A stretch of 64,000 bases of DNA. It comes from Clostridia bacterium (GTDB lineage: Bacteria; Bacillota; Clostridia; Christensenellales; CAG-138). The stretch spans positions 20,795-84,794 of the forward strand of contig JAFPWD010000038.1 of assembly GCA_017395105.1 (NCBI GenBank), written 5' to 3'. The notes beneath the pieces are model-generated. The model saw nothing but the letters and a program-made list of their open reading frames with translations. It made no database searches and was not told the origin of the DNA. A program made the translations under genes and the position numbers. Shown piece after piece: positions 3,233 through 52,825 of this stretch; position 1 is the stretch's first letter, and every line of letters starts with the position of its first letter.

Positions 3233-3266
3233 CGAGAGGAAGTGATAATGTTTGGAGCGGTATTCA

Positions 3267-11906: not shown

Positions 11907-11926
11907 ACGGCTTGGAGTAAATCAAT

Positions 11927-13638: not shown

Positions 13639-13644
13639 TTTTTT

Positions 13645-13671
13645 GCCGTCAACGGGACACCCGCTGACGGC
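13645..13671. terminator. Convergent-gene hairpin (12-bp stem with 1 mismatch, 3-nt loop)
   Basis: GCCGTCAACGGG-ACA-CCCGCTGACGGC lies between the + gene ending at 13638 and the - gene ending at 13685. The U-tract is weak on both strands. Confidence 0.4.
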
Positions 13672-13684
13672 TCCTTTATAGGCT

Positions 13685-14857: not shown

Positions 14858-14913
14858 AACGCACCTCAATATTCTCGATCATGCACCTTGATAGGGCATG
14901 GTTAATTATAACA

Positions 14914-14949
14914 CAACTATTCGCAAAAGACAAGTTTTGCGAATAGTTG
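14914..14949. promoter_or_regulatory. Perfect 15-bp inverted repeat (CAACTATTCGCAAAA-N6-TTTTGCGAATAGTTG) overlapping a putative extended -10 promoter of the recombinase gene
   Basis: By direct reading on the minus strand, the repeat is followed immediately by TGTTATAAT. A TTGTCT -35-like hexamer lies in the spacer, 17 nt upstream of the -10. The repeat could alternatively be the rnhA terminator. Confidence 0.45.
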
Positions 14950-15047
14950 ATTGCAAAATAAACTGAAACAGAATAAATTCGGAAATTCGTTCGGTTTTAA
15001 ATGTTCTTTTATAATGGTGTTGAGCTTTTATTTCGATCACATCGGGT

Positions 15048-15536
15048 TTACCTTGACGACGATTCAGCATTCGCTTCGGTGCTCTGCGCTTCAAGCTGCT
15101 TTTTCAGCTCACTCGCGGCGCCTGTTGCCAGCTTATCGCAGCGATTATTGTATTCGTTATCCGAGTGTCCCTTGACCTTGTTCCAATTAACCTTATGTTT
15201 GCCCGTGAGCTCTAAAAGTTCCTGCCAGAGCTCCTGATTTTCAACGGGCTTTTTTGCGGAGGTTTTCCAGCCGTTTCTTATCCAGTTTCGGAGCCAGCCT
15301 TGGGCAAAGCCGTTAAAAACATAGCTGCTGTCGGTGTAAACCTCAACTTCACATGGCTGATTAAGGCATTTTAAAGCCTCGATGACCGCAGTTAGCTCCA
15401 TTCGATTGTTAGTGGTGTACTCGCAGGCGCCGCAGATTTCCTTTTCAACGCCTTTATACATAAGAATCGCGCCCCAACCGCCAACCCCGGGATTGCCCGA
15501 GCAAGCTCCGTCCGTATAAATCGATACTTCTTTCAT
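15048..15536 (-). CDS. rnhA: Ribonuclease HI
   Basis: It has 'IYTDGACSGNPGVGGWG', 'TNNRMELTAVIEAL', 'VYTDSSYV' and 'WNKVKGHSDNEYNNRCDKLA' (DEDD catalytic residues). Confidence 0.93.
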   Translation of the reverse strand: MKEVSIYTDGACSGNPGVGGWGAILMYKGVEKEICGACEYTTNNRMELTAVIEALKCLNQPCEVEVYTDSSYVFNGFAQGWLRNWIRNGWKTSAKKPVENQELWQELLELTGKHKVNWNKVKGHSDNEYNNRCDKLATGAASELKKQLEAQSTEANAESSSR

Positions 15537-15606
15537 TATTATGATATATTATATTGTTTGTAAGTAAAATTTTATCCTTCGGTGAATTCATTATGACAAA
15601 AAGCGA

Positions 15607-16395
15607 TCAGTCATCAAATTCTTCGCTGTCTGAAATACCTTCAAAAGAATCAGCAAATGGAACGAATCTCGCTTCCCCGTCCTCTCCATCGAAGAACCAG
15701 TCGCCGTAAACTCCGCAGGAAGCGGCTCCGAGTTCAATATGAAGCATGGCGATTCCGCAGTCAACGTCACCAAAGCCGAAGTTGCGCTTGGTGTTTATGA
15801 TGCGAATATAGTCGCGTTCGATCTCAAGTTCCCACGGCTGCTTATTCAGCGCCGAAGGTGCAAGCCTTGCCGAGCTGACCGCCTCACGCTGCCAGGCGGG
15901 CAGCATTCTAAATTCGCTCTCGCTCAGTCCGGTTAGCTTCTGCACACTCTTTTTCTCGGCGGGCGTGGGCTGCTCCGCCACTTTACCGGCAGCGATAACG
16001 CAGAGCAGACTTTCATCCTCATCGAGGCTAAAGGCATTCTTTAGACTTCGTTTTTTATAAGTGCCTCCGAGCCAACATGTGCCAAGCCCCCTTGAAACGC
16101 ACTCAAGAACGAAGGCTTCGCCTATATAGCCGCCCATAAACTTGTTATCGTCGCGAACGATTACGGCAGCAAAGCAGTTCGTGCCCTCAACGCCGCCAAG
16201 AAACGATAGCAGTCGGGATCTGCCGAGGACGCCGCTTTTTGACTTGAACTCGATCCGCGCATCGCCGTTGTTGAGCGTTGCAGCAAAATCCTTTAGATTA
16301 TAAAACAGCTCCTTGGATACCTTTCCGTCGTATTGGCGCACAGAAGCCCTTTTTTTCGCAGCCTCATGCCATTTAATCATCATGTTGTATTCCAT
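15607..16395 (-). CDS. Nitroreductase-family protein
   Basis: 262 aa. 'RASVRQYDG', 'GLGTCWLGG' and 'SALNKQPW' are typical of the nitroreductase fold. No specific subfamily was resolved. Confidence 0.6.
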   Translation of the reverse strand: MEYNMMIKWHEAAKKRASVRQYDGKVSKELFYNLKDFAATLNNGDARIEFKSKSGVLGRSRLLSFLGGVEGTNCFAAVIVRDDNKFMGGYIGEAFVLECVSRGLGTCWLGGTYKKRSLKNAFSLDEDESLLCVIAAGKVAEQPTPAEKKSVQKLTGLSESEFRMLPAWQREAVSSARLAPSALNKQPWELEIERDYIRIINTKRNFGFGDVDCGIAMLHIELGAASCGVYGDWFFDGEDGEARFVPFADSFEGISDSEEFDD

Positions 16396-16410
16396 GTTTA
16401 CACCACCTTA

Positions 16411-19248
16411 TTATTTATTCAATATTTGTGCAAGATACTTGCCCGTATAGCTCTTTTCACACTTGGCAAGCTCCTCGGGAGTGCCGCAGGCGACTATCTC
16501 GCCGCCGCGAACGCCGCCGTCCGGTCCGAGATCGATTATGTAGTCCGCAGTTTTGATAACGTCCAGATTGTGCTCGATAACCACGACCGTGCTGCCTGAG
16601 GAGCAGAGCCGCTGTAATATCGCAAGCAGCCTTTCAACGTCCGCAGAGTGCAGACCGGTGGTCGGCTCATCGAGGATGTAGATGGTTCTGCCCGTGTCGC
16701 GCCGGGCAAGCTCGGTTGCAAGCTTCACCCTCTGCGCCTCGCCGCCTGAGAGCGTTGTGGACGACTGCCCAAGCTTGATGTAGCCAAGTCCAACGTCATA
16801 GAGCGCCTGCAGCTTCTTTGCGATCTTTGGTATCGCGCCGAAGAACTCAAGTGCCTGCTCCACGGTCATATCGAGCACGTCGGATATGGTCTTGCCGCGA
16901 TAACGCACCTCGAGGGTTTCGCGGTTATAGCGCTTGCCCTTGCATACTTCGCAGGGAACGTATACATCAGGCAAAAAGTGCATCTCGATTTTGATTATAC
17001 CGTCGCCGCGGCAGGATTCGCAGCGCCCGCCCTTGACGTTGAAGCTGAATCTGCCGGCACTGTAGCCGCGCATTTTCGCATCGGGAGTTATGGCGAAAAC
17101 CTCGCGAATAAGGTCGAACACTCCGGTATAGGTCGCAGGATTGCTCCTCGGCGTTCTGCCTATCGGCGATTGGTCGATATCGATGACCTTGTCGAGAAAG
17201 CCTTCACCCTCCATACGGTCAAAATCGCCCGAATGCGTTCGAGCTCTGTTGAGCTTTCTGAGAAGCGTGTTTTTGATTATTCCGTTCACAAGGCTCGATT
17301 TACCGGAGCCCGAAACTCCCGTAACGCACGTGAACACGCCAAGAGGGATCGAAATGTCGATATTGCGAAGATTATGCTCGCGGCAGCCGTAAGCCTTCAA
17401 AAAATGACCGTCCTTGGCGGTTCTTCGTTCCTTCGGTATCTCGATCATGCGTGCTCCGCTCAAGAACTGACCCGTGATCGATTCGGGAACAGCGATTATT
17501 TCATCAACGGTGCCCTGAGCCACGACCTCTCCGCCGTGTACACCGGGACCAGGGCCGATATCCACGATATAGTCTGCGCTGAGCATGGTCTCCTCATCGT
17601 GCTCGACCACAATCAGGGTGTTGCCGAGATCGCGCAAGCCTTTAAGGGTCGCTATCAGCTTTGCGTTATCATGCTGATGCAGGCCGATGCTCGGTTCATC
17701 GAGAATGTAAAGAACGCCCACAAGTCCCGATCCGATCTGAGTAGCAAGACGGATGCGTTGGGATTCTCCGCCGGAAAGCGATGAAGCGGAGCGAGCAAGA
17801 GTGAGATAATCAAGCCCAACGTCGGCGAGAAATTGAAGCCTTGCCATAAGCTCCTTGAAGATCCTTGAAGCGATGATCCGTTCGGATTCCGAAAGCTCTA
17901 TATTGTTCAGATAAGAAAGCACATCCAGTATAGGAAGCTCTGAAACGTCCGCGATCGACTTATCATTGATCGTAACGGCAAGCACCTCGGGCTTGAGCCT
18001 TTTGCCACCGCAAACCGGGCAGGGCGTGTGGTGCATATACTCCCTGTAAGCCTCCTTCATCGAATCGGACTGCGTTTCATGATATCTGCGCTCCATCGTC
18101 GGAATAACGCCGGCAAACGCAGCCATAAACACTCCGTTTCCGAAGTCGCGCTCATACTCGATTTTGAACTTTCTATCGCCCGTACCATACAGGATTATAT
18201 TTTTTGCTTCCTCGGAAAGCTCCTGCCAAGGGGTATCTATCGAAAAGCCGTATTCCTTTGCAACCGCCTTAAAATACATCAGCGCAAGGCTGTTTTCACT
18301 CGGTGCATTAACTGAACCCCATCCCATTGCCGAAACCGCGCCGTCACGAAGCGACTTTGTAGGATCGGCAATGACGAGCGCGGGATCGATCTGCTCCTGA
18401 AAGCCAAGACCCGTGCAGGCAGGACATGCGCCGTAGGGATTATTGAAGGAAAACATACGCGGGCTGAGCTCCTCGATGCTGATGCCGCAGTCCGGGCAGG
18501 CATAGTTCTGAGAAAACAGCAGCTCTTCCCCGCCGATCACGTCTACCTTTGCAAGCCCTGCTCCGAGCGAGAACGCCGTTTCAAGCGAATCCGTCAGGCG
18601 CATGTCCACGCCTTCCTTCAAAACTATCCTGTCAACTATAACATCAATATTGTGTTTCTTATTTTTTTCAAGCGGCGGAACTTCGTTTATATCATAGGTT
18701 TGCCCGTCCACCTTTACGCGCACGTAACCGTCCTTGCGGATCTGCTCGAGAAGCTTTACGTGCTCGCCCTTGTTTCCGCGAACAACGGGTGCGATTATTT
18801 GAAGTTTCGAGCCCTCTCCAAGCTTTTGAATGCTGTCCACGACCTGATCTATGCTCTGTCGCTTTATCACCTTGCCGCATTTTGGGCAATGCGGAACGCC
18901 GATACGCGCAAACAAAAGGCGCAGATAGTCGTTTATCTCGGTGACCGTACCCACTGTGGAACGGGGATTGTTTGAAGTGCTCTTCTGGTCGATGGATACG
19001 GCGGGAGAAAGGCCGTCGATATAGTCCACATCCGGCTTATCCATCTGACCGAGGAACTGTCGCGCATACGATGAGAGCGACTCAACGTAGCGCCTCTGAC
19101 CCTCGGCGAATATGGTTTCAAACGCAAGCGAGGATTTGCCGGAGCCCGAAAGCCCGGTAAAAACTATCAGCTTGTCCCTCGGTATTGAAAGCGTTATGTT
19201 CTTAAGGTTGTTTTCTCTTGCACCCTTTATTGTAATGTACTCTTTCAT
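16411..19248 (-). CDS. uvrA: Excinuclease ABC subunit A
   Basis: 945 aa. It has '[10 protein letters not shown]...[15 protein letters not shown]', zinc-finger cysteines, a second '[11 protein letters not shown]' P-loop and two 'LSGGE.QR' signatures. Confidence 0.98.
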
Positions 19249-39023: not shown

Positions 39024-40040
39024 TTATTCGGTGATATAAGCTCTGATAAGCTCGATGGTGTTTTTAACACCGTCGATATGCGAGCGCTCATAGCCGTGCG
39101 ACGCGTACACGCCCGCGCCGATAAGTCCGTGGCGCAGATCGTATCCCGCATCGAGCGCGGCATCGGCATCCGAACCATAGAACGGATAGACATCGAGTGC
39201 GTAATCGAGCTCATGCTTTTTGGCAAGAGAAACCAGCCTGTCGGTGAGCTCGTAGTTGTATGGGCCGTGGGAATCCTTAACGCAGATTGAAACCTGATGC
39301 TCCTTGCACTCAAGGCCGTCGCCCACACAGCCCATGTCTACGCTGATGATCTCCTCCGCATCCTCCGGGATACCGCTTGAACAGCCGTGACCGACCTCCT
39401 CAAAAACGGTGAGATAGATATAGACTTTGCGCGAAAGCTTAATTTCTCCTTCGGTGATTCGTCGTGCAACATCGAGGAGAATGGCGGCGCTGAGCTTATC
39501 ATCGAGGAAGCGGCTCTTGATATAGCCTGAGGCGGTGACGGTCGTTCTCGGATCGAAGCACACGTAGTCGCCCGTCGCGATGCCGAGCGCCTTTGTGTCA
39601 TCAGCCGAGAATACCTTCTCATCGAGAACGAGCTCCATGCTGTCCCAATCGCGCTTCTGCTCGCTGTACTTGCCGTTGACGTGTACGGAGGGGTCGTTCA
39701 TCTGAAAGCAGCCCTCGTAAACCTTGCCGTCGCGGGTGTAAACGCGAGCATTCTCGGTCTCGGCATTGTTTGCATTCATGCCGCCGATTCGAGTGAGCTT
39801 CAGTCTGCCGTTGCTCTTGATACCGGCAACCATGCAGCCGAGCGTGTCGATATGTGCCGAGAAAACAGCGGGCGTGCCCTCTCCGCCAAGGCAGCATAAA
39901 ACGCAGCCCTTTCGGGTCATTTCAGGTTTATACCCGAGTTTTTCAAGCTCGCCCATCAGGTATTCGGCAGCCTTTTTGGTGAAGCCGCTGGGGCTGTCTA
40001 TAGCCATAAGCTTTTTAAGTTGATCGATAATGAAGTCCAT
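39024..40040 (-). CDS. M42-family metallopeptidase (FrvX/YsdC-like aminopeptidase)
   Basis: It has 'AIDSPSGF', 'SAHIDTLG', 'RFLDDK', 'FEEVGHG' and 'GSDA' metal-ligand motifs. The ATG follows GGAGGA. Confidence 0.8.
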   Translation of the reverse strand: MDFIIDQLKKLMAIDSPSGFTKKAAEYLMGELEKLGYKPEMTRKGCVLCCLGGEGTPAVFSAHIDTLGCMVAGIKSNGRLKLTRIGGMNANNAETENARVYTRDGKVYEGCFQMNDPSVHVNGKYSEQKRDWDSMELVLDEKVFSADDTKALGIATGDYVCFDPRTTVTASGYIKSRFLDDKLSAAILLDVARRITEGEIKLSRKVYIYLTVFEEVGHGCSSGIPEDAEEIISVDMGCVGDGLECKEHQVSICVKDSHGPYNYELTDRLVSLAKKHELDYALDVYPFYGSDADAALDAGYDLRHGLIGAGVYASHGYERSHIDGVKNTIELIRAYITE

Positions 40041-40075
40041 GTTTTCCTCCGTTTTGCTGAATTGATATGGTGCGA

Positions 40076-41863
40076 TCATTTAATCAGATAGAAGCTGTTC
40101 TGCGCATCATGCAGCTTCTTATACTCGCCGCCAAGCGCGATAAGCTCATCGTGCGAGCCCATCTCCACTATGCCGCGCTCATCTATCACGGCAATCTTAT
40201 CGGCGTTTCTGACCGTGGAAAGCCTGTGCGCGATAACGAGCGTGGTCCTGCCCTTGCTGAGTCGCTCAAATGCGGCGGTTATGCGCGCTTCGGTTGCGGA
40301 GTCGAGCGCACTGGTAGCCTCATCAAGAATCAGTATGGGCGGGTTTTTCAGAAATATCCTCGCTATCGAAACGCGCTGCTTCTGTCCGCCCGAAAGCGTT
40401 ATGCCGCGCTCGCCAACGACAGTGTCGTATCCGTCGGGCATCCTCATGATATCATCGTGGATCTCGGCAGCGATGGCGGCTCGGACTATCTCCTCATCGG
40501 TGGCATCGATCCTGCCGTAGCGGATATTGTCCTTGATGCTGGCGGCAAACAGGAATACGTCCTGCTGAACTATGCCGATATTCCGGCGAAGCGATGCAAG
40601 AGTAACACTCTTGATGTCATTCCCGTCCACAGTGATGCTTCCGTCAACAGTTTCATAGAAACGTGGAAGCAGATGGCAGAGCGTTGTCTTACCGCCGCCA
40701 GAGGGGCCGACCAAAGCAACGGTCTCCCCTGACTTTATATGCAGGCTGATGGTTTCAAGCACGTTGCGCGGGGTCTCGTCGTCGGTTTGATAGGCGAACG
40801 TGACGTTATTGAAGTCGATCTCACCCTTAACCTCCTTTAGCTCGATTGCGTTCGGCGCATCCTCTATTTCAGGCTCGGTATCAAGAAGCTCGGTGAATCT
40901 CTTGAAGCCCGCCATGCCCATGGCGTATTGCTCGGAGAAGGCGGCAAGCTTTCGGATGGGGTTGGTGAAGGATGAAACGTACAGCAGGAAAACTATCAGT
41001 GTGGTCTGATCCATCCTGCCGCGCATGATGAGAAAGCCGCTGACGGTCAGCACCAGAACGCCCATGATGGAGGTGAAAAACTCCATGCCCGCATGGAAAA
41101 GACCCATGGTTTTATAATAGCGGCGCTTGGATTTGATAAAGATGCTGTTGCCCTTTTCAAACTTTTCTATCTCGTAGTTTTCGTTCGTGAATGCCTTTGC
41201 AACGCGCGCGCCGCTTATAGAGGACTCGATATCCGCATTGATTATCGCAACGCCCTCCTTGACCTTGCGCGATGTGCGGCTCATGCGGGTTCTAAGCTTC
41301 ATAACAAAAAGCATGAGTATAGGCACGGTGAGAATAAGAACGAGCGCAAGCCGCCATTCGATGAACAGCATCGCAACGAAGGCACCAAGGAAGGTGACTA
41401 TTGAAATGAACACATCCTCGGGGCCGTGGTGTGCAAGCTCCGTAACGTCGAATAGGTCGTTTGTGCAGCGGGAAAGAAGCTTGCCCGTCCTCGATTTATC
41501 ATAGAAGCTGAAGCCGAGCTTTTGAAGATGGGAAAATACATCCCTTCGCATATCGGCTTCAATATTAACGCCGAGCGTATGCCCAAGATAAGTAACGATG
41601 AAGGTCGCAAGTGTGCGCAGCAGATACATTCCGAAGCATATTGCCATAAGTATAAAGAACGGAGCATACTTCGGCGCATCCGGGGTCAGATAGTCGTAAA
41701 GTGCTTTTCTTGAAATGAGCGGGTACGAGATATCAACCGCGGAAATGAACAACGCACAGGCCATATCGGTCATGAAAAGACCCATGTGGGGCTTGTAGTA
41801 TGAAGCAAAACGCGACAGTGCGCCTTTTTTGTTCTTCTTAGGAGCATTTTCCATGTTCATCAC
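40076..41863 (-). CDS. ABC transporter, fused permease/ATPase (MsbA/multidrug-exporter type)
   Basis: There are six predicted N-terminal TM segments. It has Walker A 'GPSGGGKTT', signature 'LSGGQKQR' and Walker B 'ILILDEATSALD'. Confidence 0.9.
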   Translation of the reverse strand: MMNMENAPKKNKKGALSRFASYYKPHMGLFMTDMACALFISAVDISYPLISRKALYDYLTPDAPKYAPFFILMAICFGMYLLRTLATFIVTYLGHTLGVNIEADMRRDVFSHLQKLGFSFYDKSRTGKLLSRCTNDLFDVTELAHHGPEDVFISIVTFLGAFVAMLFIEWRLALVLILTVPILMLFVMKLRTRMSRTSRKVKEGVAIINADIESSISGARVAKAFTNENYEIEKFEKGNSIFIKSKRRYYKTMGLFHAGMEFFTSIMGVLVLTVSGFLIMRGRMDQTTLIVFLLYVSSFTNPIRKLAAFSEQYAMGMAGFKRFTELLDTEPEIEDAPNAIELKEVKGEIDFNNVTFAYQTDDETPRNVLETISLHIKSGETVALVGPSGGGKTTLCHLLPRFYETVDGSITVDGNDIKSVTLASLRRNIGIVQQDVFLFAASIKDNIRYGRIDATDEEIVRAAIAAEIHDDIMRMPDGYDTVVGERGITLSGGQKQRVSIARIFLKNPPILILDEATSALDSATEARITAAFERLSKGRTTLVIAHRLSTVRNADKIAVIDERGIVEMGSHDELIALGGEYKKLHDAQNSFYLIK

Positions 41864-43396: not shown

Positions 43397-44326
43397 TTAA
43401 AAATTCAACTCTTCCGCAACGATATACAGCGGACGGTTCTTGAGCTCGTCGTACATTCTGTTCATATAAGCACCCTGAATGCCGAGGAAAACGAAACCGA
43501 TGCCCATAAGCAGCGCAAGCCCGAAGAACATCCAGAGCAGCCCGGACACCTTCACGGAGCATATTGCAAGGATGATGAACACAAGGAATGCAAGCAGGCT
43601 CAGCGCCGAAACGCCCGCTCCGAAATAGCCGCAGAGCGTGAGCGGACGATCGGAGAAGCCGATGATGCCGTCCATGGCAAGCTTAATCATCTTCTTGAGC
43701 GTATACTTGGTTTTGCCGGCATAGCGCTCATTGCGCACGAACTCTATCGGAACGGCTTCAAAGCCCATCCAAGCGCTCATGCCGCGCAAAAAGCGGTTAT
43801 GCTCACGCATCTTGAGGAACACGTCCGCAACACGGCGATCGATAAGGCGGAAATCGCCGGTGTCAAGAGGGATCTCGGCGGCACTCATTGCCTTTAGCAC
43901 CCTGTAGTAGCAAGAAGCGGTAAATTTTTTAAGGAATGTCTCGCCCTGGCGCTTTACGCGCTTACCGTAGGCGATATCGGCACCGTTTTCCCATGCCCTG
44001 ACCATATCCTCGATGACCTCTGGCGGGTCCTGAAGGTCGACGTCGATTATTATAAGCGCATCGCCCTGTGCGGCATCCATGCCGCAGGTAACGGCGAGTT
44101 GATGGCCGAAGTTGCGGCTGAAGGAGCGCACCTTGACCTGAGGGTTGTCCTTCGCGATTTTGCGAAGTATTTTCATCGACTTATCGCGGCTGCCGTCGTT
44201 TACGTAGATGATCTCGTAATCGTATCCGATGCCGCGCATCACCTCGTCCATGCGCTTGAATGAGGTTTCAAGAACCTCCTCCTCGTTGTAGACGGGAACG
44301 ATGAGTGAAAGCATTGCGTTTTGCAT
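43397..44326 (-). CDS. GT2 glycosyltransferase, polyprenyl-phosphate sugar transferase type (GtrB/DPM1-like)
   Basis: It has 'LSLIVPVYNEEE', 'YVNDGSRD', 'DVDLQDPPE' and two C-terminal TM helices. Confidence 0.8.
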   Translation of the reverse strand: MQNAMLSLIVPVYNEEEVLETSFKRMDEVMRGIGYDYEIIYVNDGSRDKSMKILRKIAKDNPQVKVRSFSRNFGHQLAVTCGMDAAQGDALIIIDVDLQDPPEVIEDMVRAWENGADIAYGKRVKRQGETFLKKFTASCYYRVLKAMSAAEIPLDTGDFRLIDRRVADVFLKMREHNRFLRGMSAWMGFEAVPIEFVRNERYAGKTKYTLKKMIKLAMDGIIGFSDRPLTLCGYFGAGVSALSLLAFLVFIILAICSVKVSGLLWMFFGLALLMGIGFVFLGIQGAYMNRMYDELKNRPLYIVAEELNF

Positions 44327-45091: not shown

Positions 45092-45188
45092 GTCCAAACG
45101 ATATATTAGTTGTTTGCTATTGCTTTTTCGCCGCAAATGTTGTAAAACAGAATAAGTTATTATGCCAATAGGCAAATTGGAGGTTAAA

Positions 45189-45770
45189 ATGGATTTTATC
45201 GTTGAAGTATCCGCACGCCACGTGCATCTGACTCAAGAGCATGTTGAGATCCTTTTCGGCAAGGGTCACGAGCTCACCTTCGACCGTCCCCTTTCCCAGC
45301 CCGGCCAGTTTCTGAGCAAGGAAAAGGTCACCATCAAGAACGGCGATAGAAAGATCGAGCGCGTTTCCATTCTCGGACCCGTCCGCAAGGCTTCGCAGGT
45401 CGAGGTAAGCAAGACCGACAGCGTTGCGCTTCGCGCAGAGGGCTTCATTCGTGAGAGCGGCGATCTTGCAGGTACCGCCCCCATCGAGATCGAAGGACCC
45501 GAGGGAAGCGTTCAGCTTGAGGAAGGCCTCATCATCGCAAAGCGCCATATCCACATGACTCCCGAAGCCGCAGAAGAAGCCGGTCTCAAAGATAAGGACG
45601 TAGTCAGCGTTGCGGTCAACACCGAGGACAGAAAGACCATCTTCGGCGACGTTGTGGTTCGCGTTTCCCCGAGCTTCGCGCTCGCCATGCATATCGACAC
45701 CGACGAAGCAAATGGCGCAAACGTTCCGAGAAACGGATGTCAGGGTCATATCGTTTCCGTTGAGTTCTAA
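45189..45770 (+). CDS. pduL: Phosphate propanoyltransferase / phosphotransacylase PduL
   Basis: It has the duplicated PduL motifs 'VSARHVHLTQEHVEILFG' and 'IIAKRHIHMTPEAAEEAGL', plus 'AMHIDTDEANGA'. The ATG follows GGAGGT. Confidence 0.9.
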   Translation: MDFIVEVSARHVHLTQEHVEILFGKGHELTFDRPLSQPGQFLSKEKVTIKNGDRKIERVSILGPVRKASQVEVSKTDSVALRAEGFIRESGDLAGTAPIEIEGPEGSVQLEEGLIIAKRHIHMTPEAAEEAGLKDKDVVSVAVNTEDRKTIFGDVVVRVSPSFALAMHIDTDEANGANVPRNGCQGHIVSVEF

Positions 45771-45783
45771 TGATTGATGTCAC

Positions 45784-45817
45784 AAAGGACGGGCAATACC
45801 CGTCCTTTTTCGTTTTC
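45784..45817 (+). terminator. Intrinsic terminator after pduL (also downstream of the convergent HprK-like gene)
   Basis: AAAGGACGGG-CAAT-ACCCGTCCTTT is followed by TTCGTTTTC. Confidence 0.75.
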
Positions 45818-45873: not shown

Positions 45874-46632
45874 TTACTCCACAATGGAATCACGGGCGAA
45901 TTCGGCCGCATCGATCTGCATATTGCAGGCAAGCGCATAAACGGGCACGGTAAGAACCAGCTCCTGCAATAGGCCGAGCGCAACGGAAGCGAGTCTCGGA
46001 TCGGTCGGGATGTAGATGTTGGTTGAAAGGCTGATCAGCGCATCTAAAGGGGAAAGCCGAGCTATGGAATTGGTTTCACTTCGGCTGAGCACACAAATGG
46101 CTCCTATCGGCGACTCAATGTTGTTTCCGAGATGTTCTTTTCCGTTCCAAATGCTTCCGCATGCAGAAGCGCCGTTTTTATCGATGCGTATGAGCGGCTG
46201 ATCGCCGCTTATGATCCGCACTTCATTACCATAGGCCTTGCGCCAAAGCCGCGCATGCGTGCTCTTGCCCGTGCCGCTCGGAGCGGAAAACAGATATGCT
46301 TTCTTTCGGTAAGTGAGCGAGGCAGCATGAAGCGTTAAAACGTTTTTCGTCAGAAGCCAATCGGAAATATCCTGATGAATAAGAAAGAAACCCGACGGAT
46401 TCCCGTTCCCGAACGGATGCCCGTTTATCAGGTTTCTTTCGATGGTAACAGTATGCTCTATTTGATCTGGTGCGCTATTTGCGAGATACTTTTTAAAGTA
46501 TTTGCGGTTCAGGGTCGATCCATAGGAACGTACAGCAATAATATGACCGGCAAGGCAAATTGTCAGTTGATCGTACTTTCCACTATTATTCTTGGTCGGC
46601 TTCGATCCGCTCACGAAAAAACCTATCAGCAA
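45874..46632 (-). CDS. HPr-kinase-related P-loop protein (RiPP-cluster associated)
   Basis: 252 aa. It has 'LHAASLTYRKKAYLFSAPSGTGKSTHARLW' (a Walker A in an HprK C-domain-like context). The TTG start overlaps the precursor-peptide stop by 7 nt. It is the last gene of the operon. Confidence 0.7.
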   Translation of the reverse strand: MLIGFFVSGSKPTKNNSGKYDQLTICLAGHIIAVRSYGSTLNRKYFKKYLANSAPDQIEHTVTIERNLINGHPFGNGNPSGFFLIHQDISDWLLTKNVLTLHAASLTYRKKAYLFSAPSGTGKSTHARLWRKAYGNEVRIISGDQPLIRIDKNGASACGSIWNGKEHLGNNIESPIGAICVLSRSETNSIARLSPLDALISLSTNIYIPTDPRLASVALGLLQELVLTVPVYALACNMQIDAAEFARDSIVE

Positions 46633-46889
46633 ACAGAGGGAGTCGGAGTATCGTAAGCTCCGAACAGGATCTGCCCCAAACCAAACTGAATGTTATTGTC
46701 ATAGTTACACGAGCTATCGGTCCTGCATACATCCTGAGTGGGGCAGCCTATTCCCTGCGTGGGGCAACCCAAACCCTGCGTGGAGCATATAGGAGCACCG
46801 CTTAAGGATGATGAGTTAGTGAACAGCACAGAATCTACTGCGATGTTTATGAGCTTTTGCTCTGCGCGTACATAACGCTTTTTTTCCAT
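46626..46889 (-). CDS. Candidate RiPP precursor peptide (87 aa) with Cys-led heptad repeats
   Basis: A strong AGGAGGT RBS lies 9 nt upstream of the ATG. The leader-like N-terminus is followed by 'ICSTQGLG CPTQGIG CPTQDV CRTDSS CNYDNN ... TPTPSVC'. It sits between the rSAM/SPASM gene and the HprK-like gene. Confidence 0.75.
   Translation of the reverse strand: MEKKRYVRAEQKLINIAVDSVLFTNSSSLSGAPICSTQGLGCPTQGIGCPTQDVCRTDSSCNYDNNIQFGLGQILFGAYDTPTPSVC
46728..46787 (-). repeat. Three tandem ~21-nt coding repeats (TGC [TC]CC AC[GT] CAG G..) encoding C-[SP]-T-Q-[GD]-x-(G)
   Basis: By direct reading, the units are 46767-46787, 46746-46766 and 46728-46745. The shared cores are CCCTGCGTGG[GA]GCA, and CCTGAGTGGGGCA on the + strand. 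Confidence 0.85.
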
Positions 46890-46926
46890 AGTTGTTTTAC
46901 CTCCTGAAACATGAGATTAATCGATA

Positions 46927-48273
46927 TTATAGCACTTTATTCTCTAAAGTCAATAGTTTTTTTACGATCATCAAATATGCATTCCTTCTGCAATCTCTAA
47001 GCATGGAGGGGCAGAAAGCACCTTGAGTGCATTCGGGCAGATAAACGCATTGCAGGCATTCGGGGCATTTTTTCTCTCTAAGGTTATCTTCAATGAACCT
47101 GCGCCGCGGCTCCGACTCATTTTCATAGTCGAACAGACTGCCGATTTTTGCTTCATCCACAAGGTGCTCGCAGCAAAAGAGATCTCCGTTCGGGGTGATG
47201 ACAGAAGAACCGTTCGGAGTATCGACCATGCAGCGGTGAGTGCGCAGTCTGCCGGCGAATTCTCCGGCAAGCATGCCGAGTGCCTTAAGCTTTTCCTGAA
47301 GTTCTATCAAACGGGAATACAGGCGGTCGTTCGCTTCATCGGATATCCGGGAACCGGGGCTCGCAAACATATCGAAGGGATAGATCGAGATACGCTTATT
47401 GCCTTTGAATACCTCTGCAAGCTCATCGGTAAGCAAAAAGAGCTCATCAACATTGTTTTCATCGGCATTCAGTCTGAAATTGACAGCAGCGCCAAAATCG
47501 GTAAGCGCCTTTGCCGCATCAAGCGCGGCGGTATAATGATCGCGATCACGATCAACGTAAGCCTTGCGCTTATGGTATTCGCATTTTCTGCCGTCAAGAG
47601 TTATCTGAGCAGAATTTACGTGCCATTGCTTGACCGCCTTTTCGGCAAGCTCGCGAGTCATAAGCGATGCGTTTGTAACTATATCAGAAACGAACCCAAC
47701 GCCGTTATCATTCAGGCCGGCAATTATCCTGTCGATCACGCGCTCGGCAACAAGAGGCTCACCGCCAAACCAGCGAATGGAGATTGCTCCTTCTGTTTTT
47801 GTTTTAAGAATGTACTTAACGGTGGCATCCGCCGTTGCATCGTCCATGGTTTTATACTCGATGCCGTTTTCAAAGCAATAAAAGCAGCGGGCATTGCAGG
47901 CCGTTGTTGGAAGAATAACAAAGGAGCCGTGCTTTTTCGTGTCCTTAGGCGAAAGCAAATGCAAAATCTTTATTGCCGAAGAGAAAAGAGCAGCCTCATT
48001 TGCATCGGAACGCACTATAAAGCGCGATCCGATGAGCTCATCGATCGTGCCGTTATCGCCGGTGTAAACAAACTCATGGGGTTCCGAAAAGAGCTGCATC
48101 AGTTCCTCGGCATCGATAAGCTGTCGGGTGAAGGTGTTGAAAACGCGGGAAGCGGAACCGAGCCTGACGGGTAGCGCAAATAAAGACGGACGGCAAAGCG
48201 TGCCTAAAGGGGGCAGCTTGCCGTCTCCTATTGCTGACATCACGTTCCGATCGGGATGTAAAAGTGTTTTCAT
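46927..48273 (-). CDS. Radical SAM / SPASM-domain peptide-modifying maturase
   Basis: It has 'ILPTTACNARCFYCFENG' (CxxxCxxC) and 'WFGGEPL'. The C-terminal auxiliary-cluster cysteines are 'HRCMVDTPNGSSVITPNGDLFCCEH' and 'KKCPECLQCVYLPECTQGAFCP'. An ATGA overlap couples it to the upstream PqqD-like gene. Confidence 0.88.
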   Translation of the reverse strand: MKTLLHPDRNVMSAIGDGKLPPLGTLCRPSLFALPVRLGSASRVFNTFTRQLIDAEELMQLFSEPHEFVYTGDNGTIDELIGSRFIVRSDANEAALFSSAIKILHLLSPKDTKKHGSFVILPTTACNARCFYCFENGIEYKTMDDATADATVKYILKTKTEGAISIRWFGGEPLVAERVIDRIIAGLNDNGVGFVSDIVTNASLMTRELAEKAVKQWHVNSAQITLDGRKCEYHKRKAYVDRDRDHYTAALDAAKALTDFGAAVNFRLNADENNVDELFLLTDELAEVFKGNKRISIYPFDMFASPGSRISDEANDRLYSRLIELQEKLKALGMLAGEFAGRLRTHRCMVDTPNGSSVITPNGDLFCCEHLVDEAKIGSLFDYENESEPRRRFIEDNLREKKCPECLQCVYLPECTQGAFCPSMLRDCRRNAYLMIVKKLLTLENKVL

Positions 48274-48536
48274 TCTTCAAACGCGCCTGCTTTACGAAGA
48301 TTATCGATGACCATTGCGATATCCTCACGCATTTCGGCTTCATCGCCATCGAATTCTTCCTGAAGCTTCCTGAGGATCCCCTCCTCGTCGGTATCCTCGC
48401 TAAGGCAGTCGATGATAAATTTTGCTGTGGGATTGGAGCGAAGCATTCCGCGGAAAGCATTAGCCTCATCCGGCGCAAAAACAATTACGCTGTCTCCGTC
48501 TATCTCTACAACGGGCAGATCGTTTTTCAGTTTCAT
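48270..48536 (-). CDS. PqqD-family RiPP recognition element (RRE) protein
   Basis: 88 aa. '...VIVFAPDEANAFRGMLRSNPTAKFIIDCLSEDTDEEGILRKLQEEFDGDEAEMREDIAMVIDNLRKAGAFEE' has typical PqqD length and pattern. An AGGAGAG RBS is present. Confidence 0.75.
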   Translation of the reverse strand: MKLKNDLPVVEIDGDSVIVFAPDEANAFRGMLRSNPTAKFIIDCLSEDTDEEGILRKLQEEFDGDEAEMREDIAMVIDNLRKAGAFEE

Positions 48537-48591
48537 TTATCAACTCTCCTATCCGGCTCAAGGCGTAACGCGAGCCACGAAATTATTGTAA

Positions 48592-48620
48592 ATATTAACA
48601 CACTCCCCCGTGCTTGTCAA
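48592..48620 (-). promoter_or_regulatory. Near-consensus sigma-A promoter for the RiPP operon (-35 TTGACA, 17 nt, TGt-TAATAT)
   Basis: On the minus strand, TTGACA is at 48620-48615 and TAATAT at 48597-48592, with TG at -15/-14. It lies about 55 nt upstream of the PqqD-like ATG. Confidence 0.6.
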
Positions 48621-48630
48621 TCTTTTTTTG

Positions 48631-48659
48631 TTGCAAGCACCTTTTTGTTATGCTATAAT
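48631..48659 (+). promoter_or_regulatory. Near-consensus sigma-A promoter for the GT2 operon (-35 TTGCAA, 17 nt, -10 TATAAT)
   Basis: TTGCAA is at 48631-48636 and TATAAT at 48654-48659, 60 nt upstream of the ATG at 48720. It is only 10 bp from the divergent -35. Confidence 0.6.
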
Positions 48660-48719
48660 ATGCCCGTATTATACTGAATTTGCCGCGGGCTTACCTCCTA
48701 CGGCACGGAACACAGAAGC

Positions 48720-49775
48720 ATGAATGATACAAAACCGTATTTCTCGGTCATCCTTCCCGTATACAACGGCGCTCAGACCTTGAGCAGGGCTATCGTGAGT
48801 ATTCTTGCGCAAACTTTTTCAGATTACGAATTGCTTGTTATAGAAAACGCATCCGAGGACAACAGCCTTGATATAGCAAAAGCATACGAAAAAAGCTTCG
48901 ATAAGGTTCGTGTTTTTCACTCTCGGCAGAAGGGCGTTTCCAAGGCGAGAAACATAGGTCTTGATAATGCTTCCGGCGAATACGCTGTTTTCCTCGATGC
49001 GGATGATTTTTATATGCCGAATGCGCTCAAGACCATGCGTGCCGCGATCGAGGATGAAGACCCCGATATTCTTATAGCCGCGTTCACCAACTATGCAAGC
49101 AACGAAAGCGAAAGAAGAGTTCGCGCAAACGGGCGCGACCTGTTTCTGGCGATGCTCGACCCCCTGAGATACTATTCTCGCATAGTGGACGGAAACGAGG
49201 TTAACGAGTTTTTGCTCAGGCATCAGTGCGCCAAGGCTTACAGGCGCAAAATGCTGCTCGATTCGCAGGTTCGTTTCAACGAGGCTTGCTCGATGTACGT
49301 TGACCTTATCTTCAACGAAGCGGCATATTCCTCATGCACAAATGCTGTGTTGATCTTCAAAAAGCTTTATCAGTACAACCACGTTTCCGGCTCCATTGTC
49401 AATCGCACAGGCCCCGCTTTTATCAAGGATGCCGTAGCTGCGTTCGGGGTGCTCGTTTCTCAGCTCGATTCGCTCGACGGCGAGCGCAGTGATGCCGTAA
49501 TCTTTTATGCATTCATGGTTATAATGCAAATGCTGAAGGTTCAGGCAAATGCTCCTATAGAAGCGAGCAATTCTATGCTCGAAGCTTTTTTAAGCTCGGT
49601 TGATGCGCAAAGAGTTATATGCTCCGTCACCGATCGTGAGCTTCATCCGAACCCCGCTGTAAACGATCAGCTTCGATGCATACTCAATATGCTTACCAAT
49701 AATGATATTCCAGGCGTGCTGACTCTTTTGAGCAATGCAGGCAAATCCCGCGCAAGGAGCAAAAAGAATGAATGA
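48720..49775 (+). CDS. GT2-family glycosyltransferase (soluble, 351 aa)
   Basis: It has 'FSVILPVYNGAQTL', 'IENASEDNS', 'ARNIGL' and 'FLDADDF' (DxD). Confidence 0.85.
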   Translation: MNDTKPYFSVILPVYNGAQTLSRAIVSILAQTFSDYELLVIENASEDNSLDIAKAYEKSFDKVRVFHSRQKGVSKARNIGLDNASGEYAVFLDADDFYMPNALKTMRAAIEDEDPDILIAAFTNYASNESERRVRANGRDLFLAMLDPLRYYSRIVDGNEVNEFLLRHQCAKAYRRKMLLDSQVRFNEACSMYVDLIFNEAAYSSCTNAVLIFKKLYQYNHVSGSIVNRTGPAFIKDAVAAFGVLVSQLDSLDGERSDAVIFYAFMVIMQMLKVQANAPIEASNSMLEAFLSSVDAQRVICSVTDRELHPNPAVNDQLRCILNMLTNNDIPGVLTLLSNAGKSRARSKKNE

Positions 49776-51312
49776 GCCTAAAATCAGCGTAATATCGCCC
49801 GTGCATAATTCCGAGGAGTATCTGAAGCGCTGCGTGGATTCTATACTCAGCCAAACGCTTAGCGATATTGAAGTAATCTTCATAGACGATGCGTCCGAGG
49901 ACGGTTCCTACGATATACTTAAAAGCTATGCCGACTCCGCCCCCCGTGTTTTGATAATAAAGCTTGATAAAAACATAGGCGCGGGCGGCGCGCGCAATCT
50001 TGGCATCGAAGCGGCGCGCGGAAAATACCTTTCATTCGTAGATTCGGACGATACGATCGCGCCCGATTTTCTTGAGCTGCTGTATGCTAAAGCCGAGGAG
50101 ACCTCAGCCGATATTATTAAAGGCTCCTGTTTCGAGGTGTTTTCAAACGATCTCGATTCAGAATTCAGCTTGCAGAATATGCGGCGCCAAAACAGTTTTA
50201 TCAAAAAAGCGATGGAATCCGGCAAGAACACCTGCGTATTCTTCTACAATAGGCATTTTTCTGCCATCTATCGTCATGCTTTTATCGATAAACATAGTAT
50301 TCGCTACGGAAATACCATCGTTGGAGCGGACAGCATATTTCTATTAAAGACCGCAGTGCTTTCCGAATCCTTTGTATTTGAGCCCTCGGCGCGATACAAC
50401 TATTATCATAGAGCGGCATCTCAATCGCTCATCATATCTCAAGAACGCTATGAGAGCAGCAGTGCATCGCTGAAGGAACAGTTTGATTTTCTTGGAAACG
50501 CCGCCATAAAGCCCGAATCTATTTTGAGAGTTGCAAATCGCAGGCTAAGATTCGGACTTAGAATTCATTCTTATCTTCTCTTCTACAAGTATCACGGTAT
50601 CGATGCCGAGGCATACGCGCAAAAGCTGTACGAGATGGCAAGCGGCTTCAAATATGCTGATAAGCTCGGCGCCAAGGATTATGCAATATGCGTTTTTTTG
50701 AGCTCGAACGGCTCCGAGAACCTCTCTATGCTGGGCATGTCAAGCTCATTCGATGATGAACTATACGTTCAACTCGCCAATTTCGAGCGCCTTGCAAAGC
50801 ATATTGTCGATGCTTCCGCTCAGCAGGATCGGGCAATCGATTATCTTACAACAGTCATCATCCACATGCGAAAAAAGCTTGTATTTCGCGCACGCGGCGA
50901 GGTGCGCAAATTCGATCAACGGCTCATCAGCGAGATAATCGATGCGCTTTCGTGCCTGAACACTCCTGAATTGCTCCCCCGCCTTCCCTTCGATGTTATA
51001 GCCATTGTTGAATATAAAGCGGATCTGCCTCCGCTCATTCACATTAGTTCCAAGATCAATTCCTTCACTGACATTGTTTCTCTCCTGAGCAAAACGGTGG
51101 ATCTGCTTTCCGAGCATCCCAATGCAGCTTCGGAGTACTATGATTTTGCGATCAAAATTTACAAGAAGCTTTTGCTTGCTTCCAACTCTTCTATTATAAA
51201 AAGAGACAAGCAGTTTATCACGGCTATGGCCAAGTTAGCTCTTGCCGCCGATTCGCTGAACTGCTCCTTAAGCAGAAAGAAACTAACGGAGGTCTGTCGT
51301 AATGCATCCTAA
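49768..51312 (+). CDS. GT2-family glycosyltransferase with a ~280-aa C-terminal non-GT domain (paralogue A)
   Basis: It has 'ISVISPVHNSEEYL', 'IDDASEDGS', 'ARNLGI' and 'YLSFVDSDDTIAPDFLELLY'. The ATG follows AAGGAG and overlaps the previous gene by 8 nt. Confidence 0.85.
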   Translation: MNEPKISVISPVHNSEEYLKRCVDSILSQTLSDIEVIFIDDASEDGSYDILKSYADSAPRVLIIKLDKNIGAGGARNLGIEAARGKYLSFVDSDDTIAPDFLELLYAKAEETSADIIKGSCFEVFSNDLDSEFSLQNMRRQNSFIKKAMESGKNTCVFFYNRHFSAIYRHAFIDKHSIRYGNTIVGADSIFLLKTAVLSESFVFEPSARYNYYHRAASQSLIISQERYESSSASLKEQFDFLGNAAIKPESILRVANRRLRFGLRIHSYLLFYKYHGIDAEAYAQKLYEMASGFKYADKLGAKDYAICVFLSSNGSENLSMLGMSSSFDDELYVQLANFERLAKHIVDASAQQDRAIDYLTTVIIHMRKKLVFRARGEVRKFDQRLISEIIDALSCLNTPELLPRLPFDVIAIVEYKADLPPLIHISSKINSFTDIVSLLSKTVDLLSEHPNAASEYYDFAIKIYKKLLLASNSSIIKRDKQFITAMAKLALAADSLNCSLSRKKLTEVCRNAS

Positions 51313-52825
51313 AATTTCGATAATAATACCCGTGTACAACTCGCAAAAATATATTTGCGCCTGTATCGACTCGATACTTGCACAATCGTTCACCGATTTT
51401 GAGCTTATCCTTATTGACGATTGCAGCACGGACGGTTCTGCGCGGATCATCGATGAATACCGCGCACAGGATGACAGGATCCATATCATCCACCTTGAAA
51501 ATAATTCAGGGCAGGGCTATGCGCGAAACGTCGGCATCGACAGCGCAATGGGGGAGTATCTTTCCTTCATTGATTCGGATGATATCATTGCTCCAGATTT
51601 CTTTGAGCTTCTTTATAAAAGAGCTGTTGAAAGCGGCGCCGAGATCGTAAAGGGACTCGGCTGTGTCGTTCATAAGGACAGCTCCATAAAAGATACGGAC
51701 AAGCACGCCTTCAAGGAGGTCAATCATGCTATACGGCAGTATCTTATCGGTAAGAGCCCCCGCCCTTTCTGTTTCTACGCAGAGCACTGGAGCGCGATAT
51801 ATAAGCGCGATTTTCTGAATGAGCACGGTATACGCTACGGCTTATCCAGAGTGGGGCAGGACACAACCTTTCTTTTGAAGGTATGCGCATATTTCAGGAG
51901 TATCGAGATCGTTGATGATGCTGTTTACTACTATATCCAGCGCAGCGGCTCAGTTATTCACTCATACGATTCAAAGCGTTTCCGTGCGCGGCTTCACTCA
52001 CTTGAGGAACAGATAGACTTTGCCAATACCGTGGAAGCCGCTGCAGCGCTTTTCCTTTCCCATATCCAAAATAGTATTAACAATTTGCTTGCGCATCATG
52101 CATATCTGAGCGTTCGCATTCCCGAAGCTGAGTCGGCAGCCTTGCTTGAGCGCCTGTATGCTGCCTTGCTCAAATACCGCTATATGCACGAAACGTCGTA
52201 TCGGGACTATTCATTGCGTGCTTTTATGGAGTCAAACGGTCATGTAAATATAAGCTTGAAAGGGTTCATCGTCGGCAATGAGGATAATACCGAATGGCAG
52301 CTCATATCGTTTAACAGATTTATTGACTACATAAACGCCGATGAAGCTTTTTTTGATCAGGGCTTGGAATATTTGGGAGCATCTATACCGTTTATGTTCC
52401 TCATGGCATTCGCAAATCATCCCAACGCCGCTCCCGAAATGTATATGGAGTTTGCCTCCAAACTGTGCAGCATCCTGATGCGTTTCAAGCAACCGGACGC
52501 CTTATGCCGCAAAATGCCGATGTGCGATTATCTTGTCAGATACGGAGCCGATATCTTTCCCCACGGCTGCAGAAAGTATGCCGATGCGTATCTCAATTAT
52601 TTCTATAGTATCACCGATCAGTTATCGAGGATAAACGCATTGCTCAGGGAGCATCCGGGTGCCGCAAAGTGTTTCCATATCGGAAAGCTGCTCACGGCAC
52701 ATGGGTTCAGAATTCTGAAAATGCTGCGATCCGCCGACAAAAAAGCAGTTGATCCGCTCCTGACCGCGTTTGCTTCAGAGGTGGCGAAATTTGACGCACT
52801 GAACAACGCAATAGAAACGAGATAA
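51302..52825 (+). CDS. GT2-family glycosyltransferase with a ~280-aa C-terminal non-GT domain (paralogue B)
   Basis: It has 'ISIIIPVYNSQKY', 'IDDCSTDGS', 'ARNVGI' and 'YLSFIDSDDIIAPDFFELLY'. The C-terminal 'NHPNAAPEMYMEFASKL' matches 'EHPNAASEYYDFAIKI' in paralogue A. It overlaps the previous gene by 11 nt. Confidence 0.85.
   Translation: MHPKISIIIPVYNSQKYICACIDSILAQSFTDFELILIDDCSTDGSARIIDEYRAQDDRIHIIHLENNSGQGYARNVGIDSAMGEYLSFIDSDDIIAPDFFELLYKRAVESGAEIVKGLGCVVHKDSSIKDTDKHAFKEVNHAIRQYLIGKSPRPFCFYAEHWSAIYKRDFLNEHGIRYGLSRVGQDTTFLLKVCAYFRSIEIVDDAVYYYIQRSGSVIHSYDSKRFRARLHSLEEQIDFANTVEAAAALFLSHIQNSINNLLAHHAYLSVRIPEAESAALLERLYAALLKYRYMHETSYRDYSLRAFMESNGHVNISLKGFIVGNEDNTEWQLISFNRFIDYINADEAFFDQGLEYLGASIPFMFLMAFANHPNAAPEMYMEFASKLCSILMRFKQPDALCRKMPMCDYLVRYGADIFPHGCRKYADAYLNYFYSITDQLSRINALLREHPGAAKCFHIGKLLTAHGFRILKMLRSADKKAVDPLLTAFASEVAKFDALNNAIETR

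Follow-up and report, generated by a model that had tools for sequence, protein, structure and literature searches.

The window analyzed here is a 64,000-nt stretch of DNA from the Clostridia bacterium assembly GCA_017395105.1 (contig JAFPWD010000038.1, positions 20,795 to 84,794), and its minus-strand open reading frame (ORF) 46626-46889 probably encodes the precursor of an uncharacterised RiPP (a peptide made by the ribosome and modified after translation). The ORF lies within a seemingly self-contained cassette of seven genes, an island of ~7 kb at 45874-52825, whose product would be crosslinked by thioether bonds and then furnished with phosphate and/or sugar. We hold this reading with moderate confidence; it draws on the gene content, conservation and synteny of the cassette, on the fold and family relations of its enzymes, and on two natural variants. 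On the minus strand, the genes for a PqqD-like protein and a radical S-adenosylmethionine (rSAM)/SPASM enzyme are followed by a promoter, the peptide gene and the gene for an ScmC-like enzyme, and three genes for family 2 glycosyltransferases (GT2) are oriented divergently on the plus strand.

In the proposed mechanism, the 26-residue leader of the precursor would be bound by the PqqD-like protein and probably also by the N-terminal domain of the rSAM enzyme itself. The CteB-like rSAM/SPASM enzyme would turn the thiols of core Cys residues into intramolecular thioethers, the family-invariant Cys87 included, which in the case of the window product would let the CSTQ/CPTQ/CPTQ/CRTD/CNYD units form as many as five small rings and the terminal Cys one link. 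Phosphate and/or sugars would afterwards be attached to the peptide by the HprK/PEPCK-fold (ScmC-like) enzyme and the trio of soluble GT2 enzymes. This last step has a precedent in lasso peptides, whose C-terminal Ser is phosphorylated by HprK-family kinases before that phosphate receives a hexose (PMC6993621).

The precursor gene and its expression signals

The precursor gene encodes 87 aa, i.e., a leader (residues 1-26, 46812-46889) and a core (residues 27-87), and ends with the Cys87 codon (46629-46631) and the stop codon (46626-46628). In GenBank the ORF is labelled as a hypothetical protein (MBQ4429366.1) of a Clostridia metagenome-assembled genome, and the peptide matched no Pfam or NCBIfam model. 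An earlier note, made from the sequence alone, had proposed this ORF as a RiPP-type precursor; the translation quoted there was reproduced exactly, on the minus strand, and the strong ribosome-binding site described there was read from the sequence as AGGAGG at 46900-46905 (minus strand), 10 nt 5' of the ATG at 46889. Cys residues occupy positions 35, 42, 49, 55, 61 and 87 (gaps of 7, 7, 6, 6 and 26), in agreement with the five Cys-led units and the Cys as last residue reported earlier. The units CSTQGLG, CPTQGIG, CPTQDV, CRTDSS and CNYDNN cover core residues 35-66 (46692-46787, minus strand), the first five Cys standing in the contexts CSTQ, CPTQ, CPTQ, CRTD and CNYD, and the 21-nt tandem repeat underlying units 1-3 was recovered by Tandem Repeats Finder at 46733-46787 (2.6 copies, 82% matches).

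The peptide gene is placed downstream, not upstream, of the rSAM gene, and a near-consensus sigma-70-type promoter (46926-46953, minus strand; TTGACT, a 16-nt spacer and a TG-extended TATAAT) sits ahead of it, within the last codons of the rSAM gene, and would serve to transcribe it. This promoter was the top-scoring one of the region in a promoter scan (11/12 positions), and it is kept in both variant loci described below, L099 (160-190) and the rSAM-less L097 (~850-880), in the latter as a remnant of the 3' end of the deleted rSAM gene. The gap between the peptide gene and the ScmC-like gene amounts to 11 nt.

The 87-aa ORF is a genuine conserved precursor, beyond a chance reading frame, because its leader codons diverge mostly synonymously and it occupies a constant position, flanked by the rSAM and ScmC-like genes. 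Within leader codons 1-26, synonymous and non-synonymous differences number 10 and 1 between the window and L001, and 9 and 1 between the window and L099. Wherever a related locus spans both flanks, the peptide gene was found enclosed by the rSAM and ScmC-like genes, and the adjacency of a precursor and an rSAM/SPASM enzyme claimed in the earlier note was thus borne out by conservation of the ORF next to homologous rSAM genes. A public assembly also contains a 100-aa frameshifted form of the window peptide (P0002), which is identical through the third Cys unit, loses the frame thereafter and is probably an assembly error or a pseudogene.

Conserved leader, variable core and C-terminal cysteine

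Word-indexed, profile and exhaustive searches yielded ~15 distinct precursor homologues (listed as P0001-P0004 and P0125-P0138), all from ruminant-gut Clostridia assemblies. A scan of JGI metagenomes with the leader profile returned one locus, a 97% variant, and the precursor family is essentially confined to ruminant assemblies in ENA, Logan and NCBI. In one lineage (L100, 1-409) two precursor genes stand in tandem, both with cores ending in ...GNPC.

All members share a 26-aa leader of the consensus M-x-KK-x-Y-x-R-A-x-x-x-L-x-N-x-A-x-x-x-x-LFT-x-S, in which M1, K3, K4, Y6, R8, A9, L13, N15, A17, L22, F23, T24 and S26 are invariant. Past residue 26 the members are almost unalignable, with cores of 30-69 residues rich in D, G, C, S and Y. 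The leader is under purifying selection, and the core is hypervariable.

The earlier note had stressed a C-x-[TY]-[QD] periodicity of the peptide, which as a defining feature did not survive comparison with the relatives. In the ~15 members internal Cys number from 0 to 7 per core, their spacing is unconserved and the gaps differ in every relative, and the C-x-[TY]-[QD] unit was seen in the window's lineage only. It is broken in close variants (CRPD in P0141; CRTQ/CDYD in L093 and P0143), in which the residues flanking Cys change but Cys never does; the Cys residues themselves are presumably under selection. The regularity of the window core is in part explained by the recent 21-nt duplication of units 1-3. 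As L001 has a repeat of its own (CPSNC-GYS-G, 30 nt x3), expansion of Cys-unit repeats is recurrent and independent, with the unit itself unconserved. Since the core evolves fast, partly by tandem duplication of Cys units, the window's repeat is best taken as one lineage's version of a variable core and not as a family signature. What is conserved is the 26-aa leader together with the C-terminal Cys, the latter mentioned in the earlier note only in passing.

To place the terminal Cys in a broader context, it is necessary to introduce the more distant relatives. A scan of GTDB species with the rSAM profile identified one close relative (63%) and 79 distant loci (28-44% identity; L014-L092) from rumen and gut Clostridia and Bacteroidales, an apparently undescribed set referred to below as the wider family. 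A ScmC-like and/or PqqD gene is present in 49/79 of them, and short precursors (1-3 per locus) with Cys-containing cores were detected in 31/79. Their leader follows the pattern MKKxYxKPxxExxExxxxDIIxTS, of which the window has the variant Y-V-R-A for Y-x-K-P, and nine of these peptides gave no meaningful match to NCBIfam or Pfam. The C-terminal Cys was found in 15/15 rSAM-linked peptides of the window's subfamily vs 5/38 candidate precursors of the wider family (Fisher p = 2.5e-9). Two rSAM relatives (P0015 and P0016, 765 aa) are fused to a Sulfotransfer_2 domain (PF03567), which suggests that sulfated peptides may occur somewhere in the wider family.

An alternative in which all Cys form disulfides was set aside as unlikely, the total number of Cys being odd (1, 3, 3 and 5) in 4/13 distinct subfamily cores tabulated, or in 5/16 sequences when P0128, a close variant, is treated as a separate entry.

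Two natural variants of the cassette

Two departures from the common pattern bear on the role of the rSAM enzyme. In L099 the terminal Cys is the sole Cys of the peptide (P0003), and immediately upstream of its gene stands the 3' end of an rSAM gene, which is 69% identical to that of the window and keeps all five distal SPASM Cys. In L097/L098 the peptides (P0130-P0132) are Cys-free and end in ...GGQDS, and the rSAM gene is gone, with 165 bp left between the PqqD and peptide genes. Kept in these loci are the genes for PqqD, the ScmC-like enzyme and the first glycosyltransferase, GT2a (71% identical), along with what remains of the rSAM 3' end, which bears the promoter. Taken together, the two variants appear to link the rSAM enzyme to Cys, most simply to the terminal Cys, and PqqD, the ScmC-like gene and GT2a persist without it.

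The order PqqD, rSAM, peptide and ScmC-like gene was found in all subfamily loci with enough sequence, with L097 lacking rSAM. The synteny set comprised the window, L001, L007/L013, L009, L011, L093, L094, L095, L096 and L097.

The rSAM/SPASM enzyme and the PqqD-like protein

The earlier note was right that an rSAM/SPASM maturase adjoins the peptide gene, but the interval 46927-48536, taken there as a single maturase, in fact holds two minus-strand genes, one for the PqqD-like protein (48270-48536) and one for the rSAM enzyme (46927-48273), the stop of the former overlapping the start of the latter by 4 nt. The separate PqqD gene had gone unmentioned there, as had the ScmC/HprK-like enzyme, the three GT2 genes and the promoter of the peptide gene.

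The rSAM enzyme (448 aa; Pfam Radical_SAM) carries a CX3CX2C motif (C126/C130/C133) and seven SPASM Cys (348, 368, 406, 409, 415, 421 and 428), all invariant in 60 relatives. Its top NCBIfam matches were the TIGR04463, Clo7bot, CefB, geopeptide and PapB maturases, every score being far under the cut-off. In searches of the PDB with a profile of the close group, CteB (5WGG) was the top match (E 9e-13). An AlphaFold2 (AF2) model built with 60 sequences reached a predicted local distance difference test (pLDDT) score of 91, and Foldseek again placed CteB first, over ~465 columns and with the N-terminal domain included; anSME, TigE, SkfB and SuiB followed as later structural neighbours. The N-terminal ~110 residues align to the region of CteB that contains its RiPP recognition element (RRE). 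By both sequence and predicted fold, the thioether synthase CteB is the nearest solved relative of the enzyme.

The PqqD-like protein (88 aa) is a predicted RRE (PF05402, E 2.4e-11, 44 bits vs a cut-off of 23), and its gene is located upstream of rSAM in all subfamily loci and is kept in the rSAM-less L097 as well. PqqD-type RREs bind the motif Y/W/L-x-x-P/L/I (PMC12710340), and the leader Y-x-x-A would be the counterpart of the Y-x-K-P of the wider family. In its generic features the cassette thus looks like an RRE-dependent RiPP system: PF05402 is matched above the cut-off, the PqqD-like gene co-occurs in all subfamily loci, and the leader Y6-x-x-A9 fits the motif class.

The ScmC-like enzyme

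The gene at 45874-46614 (minus strand, GTG start) encodes an ScmC-like P-loop enzyme of the HprK-PEPCK fold, called at 246 aa in GenBank, whose Walker A motif reads SAPSGTGKST. In an alignment of 35 members, H96, S113, G116, K117, T119 and D138 are invariant. The NCBIfam model of HprK-related kinase B was matched by the window protein at E 4e-4, and the models of HprK-related kinases A/B (HprK_rel_A/B) by 14-16 of the 35 members. TIGR04249 (ScmC) was matched weakly by 30/35 relatives, the window protein itself missing it at E<=0.01, and PF27840 (ScmC) matches are precomputed on homologues. Moreover, the family profile matches PEPCK (1II2) and HprK/P (1KO7) around the LH...SGxGK...DD motifs, and the LH motif, Walker A and catalytic Asp typical of the HprK/P-PEPCK fold are all present. 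A single-sequence AF2 model of the protein (pLDDT 31) was discarded.

The glycosyltransferases and the terminal residue

The plus-strand half of the cassette comprises GT2a (48720-49775, 351 aa, DAD motif; Pfam Glycos_transf_2, E 1e-35), GT2b (49735-51312, 525 aa), in which an N-terminal GT-A domain matched by Pfam is followed by a ~270-aa C-terminal domain, and GT2c (51302-52825, 507 aa), of the same architecture as GT2b according to Pfam. The enzymes carry DAD/DSD motifs and none of the three has a transmembrane (TM) segment. The C-terminal domains of GT2b and GT2c gave no PDB or Pfam match, and an RRE hidden in them was rejected, as hhalign against the PqqD profile gave a probability of 0.2%. 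The best PDB matches of GT2c, and the enzymes that the GT2 proteins in general resemble most, were GalT1/dGT1 (5HEA), TarS/TarP and chondroitin synthase, with SunS (7MSN) at just E ~1e-4 and over the generic GT-A core; the SunS-family model TIGR04195 scored 21-24 bits (cut-off 350).

The GT2 genes might be chance neighbours that serve cell-envelope polysaccharides, the system proper consisting of PqqD, rSAM, the peptide and the ScmC-like enzyme and yielding a plain thioether peptide. Their divergent transcription would fit this, as would the fact that they match best to enzymes of wall teichoic acids and polysaccharides (TarS, TarP, chondroitin synthase and SpsA), the failure to detect an RRE in them, and the presence of another, PgfS-like GT2 gene nearby (43397-44326). 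We nevertheless regard it as improbable, because their linkage to the cassette is strong: an orthologous GT2 gene stands next to PqqD in 10/10 subfamily lineages (E 1e-82 to 1e-195), whereas any GT2 gene within 8 kb was found in 3/79 loci of the wider family (p = 5.6e-11). The linkage persists, amid differing outer flanks, in lineages whose rSAM identity is as low as 47%, and the GT2a orthologue is divergent beside PqqD in every subfamily locus, e.g., in L094 (53% identity) as well as in the rSAM-less L097. In addition, the seven genes stand as an island in the window, with PduL-like and rplT/infC genes on either side, and the GT2 enzymes are soluble and free of TM segments.

If the glycosyltransferases do belong to the system, the question arises of where they act. 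In the main competing explanation, the ScmC-like and GT2 enzymes would use the terminal Cys as their acceptor, which would be phosphorylated and/or S-/O-glycosylated and extended to an oligosaccharide, and the rSAM enzyme would link the internal Cys only. Several facts speak for it: the terminal Cys and the GT2 genes co-occur, in this subfamily only; the nearest solved GT2 enzyme (5HEA) elongates protein glycans; and the rSAM-less variant, which retains GT2a, PqqD and the ScmC-like gene, ends in Ser, a nucleophile that can likewise be phosphorylated or glycosylated. The C-terminal Ser of lasso peptides offers the parallel of an HprK-family kinase target that is hexosylated afterwards (PMC6993621). 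A different class of peptide provides another parallel, as glycocin F carries an S-GlcNAc on its C-terminal Cys. We consider this explanation possible, though rather unlikely. It leaves L099 unexplained, where the rSAM gene is kept though the terminal Cys is the sole thiol; the similarity to the SunS family is negligible; ScmC-like enzymes are common where the relatives' peptides end in any residue; and the terminal Ser is a single observation, Ser making up ~8% of core residues.

Crosslinking that includes Cys87, followed by phosphate and/or sugar addition, is the reading that we prefer, and several points weigh against it. The cassette lacks a protease and an exporter. The rSAM enzyme reaches 85 bits with the PapB model, whose cut-off is 340, and among its top structural matches anSME, TigE and SuiB catalyse reactions other than thioether formation. 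Positions +1 and +3 of Cys show a mild excess of Asp/Asn, but with a shuffle p of ~0.06 this is too weak for any acceptor residue to be named. The rSAM-less variant represents one lineage on 3-kb contigs, so that an rSAM gene elsewhere in the genome is possible. In the wider family ScmC-like genes occur without a terminal Cys or GT2 genes, and the role of the enzyme is thereby untied from the terminal residue. Finally, the GT2 enzymes are closest to glycan-elongating types, match SunS weakly and showed no RRE. The thioether chemistry, the residues linked and the action of the ScmC-like and GT2 enzymes on the peptide are inferred.

Comparison with known systems

In its mode of action the cassette appears closest to the systems of ranthipeptides or Cys-rich rSAM peptides, although it falls outside every curated family tested, all scores being under the cut-offs; the view of the earlier note that the peptide is of an unrecognised type has therefore held, with the SCIFF, PapB, Clo7bot and CefB models all scoring below their thresholds. 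With the ranthipeptides (CteB/thermocellin, PapB/freyrasin and Tte1186) and the Cys-rich rSAM peptides (TIGR04463, Clo7bot and CefA/CefB) it shares an rSAM/SPASM enzyme with an N-terminal RRE-like domain. A further likeness to these systems is a leader followed by a Cys-rich, Asp/Asn/Thr-rich core, with repeated Cys units as in freyrasin. It differs from them in the invariant C-terminal Cys, the 30-69-aa core, the discrete PqqD, the ScmC-like enzyme and the three GT2 genes. CefA/CefB, Clo7bot and TIGR04463 do not accommodate it, as both the maturase scores (124, 110 and 100 bits vs 525, 600 and 600, respectively) and the Cys periodicity are off. Similarly, it does not belong with SCIFF (six Cys in forty-five), since the peptide has no NCBIfam match and the rSAM enzyme scores 42.7 bits with the maturase model TIGR03974 (cut-off 425).

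The association of PqqD, rSAM/SPASM and an HprK-like protein is known from SynChlorMet (ScmC/D/E/F) and GeoRSP (geopeptide rSAM, PqqD and HprK-related kinases A/B), both uncharacterised NCBIfam/TIGRFAM systems. Unlike in these, the window scores are far under the cut-offs, the precursor is identifiable, GT2 genes are present and the host belongs to rumen Clostridia. SynChlorMet has two rSAM enzymes (ScmE and ScmF), whereas the window has one, which reaches 42 bits with the ScmE model (cut-off 400).

In lasso peptide clusters (paeninodin PadeK, pseudomycoidin PsmK/PsmN) an HprK-family kinase is encoded with a RiPP, the side chain of the last residue is modified and a sugar is then added (PMC6993621). 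The window's family likewise has a final residue that is invariant (Cys, with Ser in one variant) as well as an HprK-like enzyme and glycosyltransferases, but the window lacks a lasso cyclase and a B protease, has a terminal Cys instead of Ser and GT2 enzymes that are not of the PsmN type, and its phosphorylation step is a putative one. Glycocins (sublancin, glycocin F) are likewise ribosomal peptides encoded with GT2-family enzymes; the window falls outside them, given 21 bits with the SunS model (cut-off 350), the absence from the cassette of a double-Gly leader, a C39 ABC exporter and thioredoxin genes, and the presence of an rSAM enzyme.

Mycofactocin (MftA-F) also combines a PqqD-type chaperone, an rSAM/SPASM enzyme and a GT2 enzyme with a peptide whose C-terminal residue is invariant, which brings up another explanation, namely that the peptide serves as the scaffold on which a small molecule or cofactor is made from the C-terminal Cys (by analogy with mycofactocin or 3-thiaglutamate-type products), the core being a mere spacer. 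That invariance is confined to the leader and the last residue would agree with this, as would the parallel of PqqD, rSAM/SPASM and GT2 to MftB, MftC and MftF (GT2b gives 70 bits with the MftF model) and the lack of a protease, exporter and immunity gene in the cassette. Such a scaffold role nonetheless seems very unlikely to us. Internal Cys are fixed within lineages and Cys units are duplicated, unlike in a neutral spacer; GT2b is far under the MftF cut-off of 280; MftC is outside the best 25 NCBIfam matches of the rSAM enzyme; and there is no peptidase in the cassette to free a C-terminal fragment. Assignment to mycofactocin itself is contradicted by the absence of MftD/MftE equivalents, by a variable and Cys-rich core, by a peptide ending in Cys and not in Val-Tyr, and by low model scores.

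Searches of the literature on ScmC/SynChlorMet, on HPr kinases with rSAM RiPPs, on thioether RiPPs of the rumen and on glycosylated rSAM RiPPs found the family undescribed, with analogies only (PMC6993621, PMC12710340), and the combination of a fixed C-terminal Cys, an ScmC/HprK-like enzyme and three co-inherited GT2 enzymes was not found described together. It is tempting, though at present doubtful, to see the system as the founding member of a 'glyco-ranthipeptide' class with a fixed C-terminal Cys, in which rSAM-made thioethers would be joined by a phospho-/oligosaccharide modification, introduced by an HprK-like kinase and 3-5 soluble GT2 domains and possibly placed on the terminal residue; such a class would have no counterpart described so far.

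Genomic surroundings of the cassette

The two arms of the cassette are separated by a divergent intergenic region of 183 bp (48537-48719), for which the promoter scan indicated promoter-like sites on either strand (minus, 48620-48592; plus, 48631-48659). At the other end, a palindromic terminator-like hairpin detected by a terminator scan (45784-45808) lies between the ScmC-like gene and a convergent PduL-like gene (45162-45770, plus strand; PF06130 PTAC) and marks the end of the operon. The flanks consist of housekeeping genes, PduL-like on one side and rplT/infC on the other, and the GC content of the cassette (46-49%) is slightly below that of the surroundings. A 210-aa minus-strand ORF (45117-45749) was ruled out as a cassette gene, the real gene there being the plus-strand PduL-like one.

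In the window, 4 kb beyond the cassette (39024-41863, minus strand), translational coupling joins the genes for an M42 aminopeptidase and an MsbA-like ABC exporter, and the two products could act as a leader peptidase and an exporter. As members of the cassette they were ruled out, for they are not syntenic in other loci, the ABC gene nearest to the cassette (40076-41863) included.

Some related loci have neighbours of their own. A tyrosine-recombinase integrase gene lies directly 3' of the ScmC-like gene in L007 and L097 (2265-3194). Beyond it, the L007 region (10608-17338) also encodes a relaxase, a Toprim protein and a HepT/MNT toxin pair; given these adjoining integrases, the cassette borders mobile elements. 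L011 has a Methyltransf_24 gene next to PqqD (6799-7452, minus strand), and its ScmC-like gene is immediately followed by one for a UDP-glucose/GDP-mannose dehydrogenase (10405-11328, plus strand), additions compatible with sugar-related tailoring. L009 contains a second, different cassette a few kb away (1364-3754, minus strand), consisting of PqqD (86 aa), rSAM (~400 aa) and ScmC-like (282 aa) genes, a partial copy of which, with PqqD (86 aa) and a truncated upstream gene, occurs in L101 (3104-4503, minus strand).

Significance

If the proposed reading is true, the cassette would unite rSAM cross-linking, an HprK-type phosphotransferase and multi-step GT2 glycosylation, a combination not reported before, and would define a precursor family by a conserved leader and Cys as the final residue. 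The family also provides two natural 'knock-outs', i.e., a peptide having the terminal Cys only, with rSAM, and a Cys-free peptide that lost rSAM. Moreover, the analysis exposes a larger set of rSAM, ScmC and PqqD loci in rumen Clostridia and Bacteroidales, whose precursors with MKKxYxKPxxE-type leaders have no NCBIfam match, and these loci would constitute the first concrete substrate context for the uncharacterised ScmC/HprK-related families.

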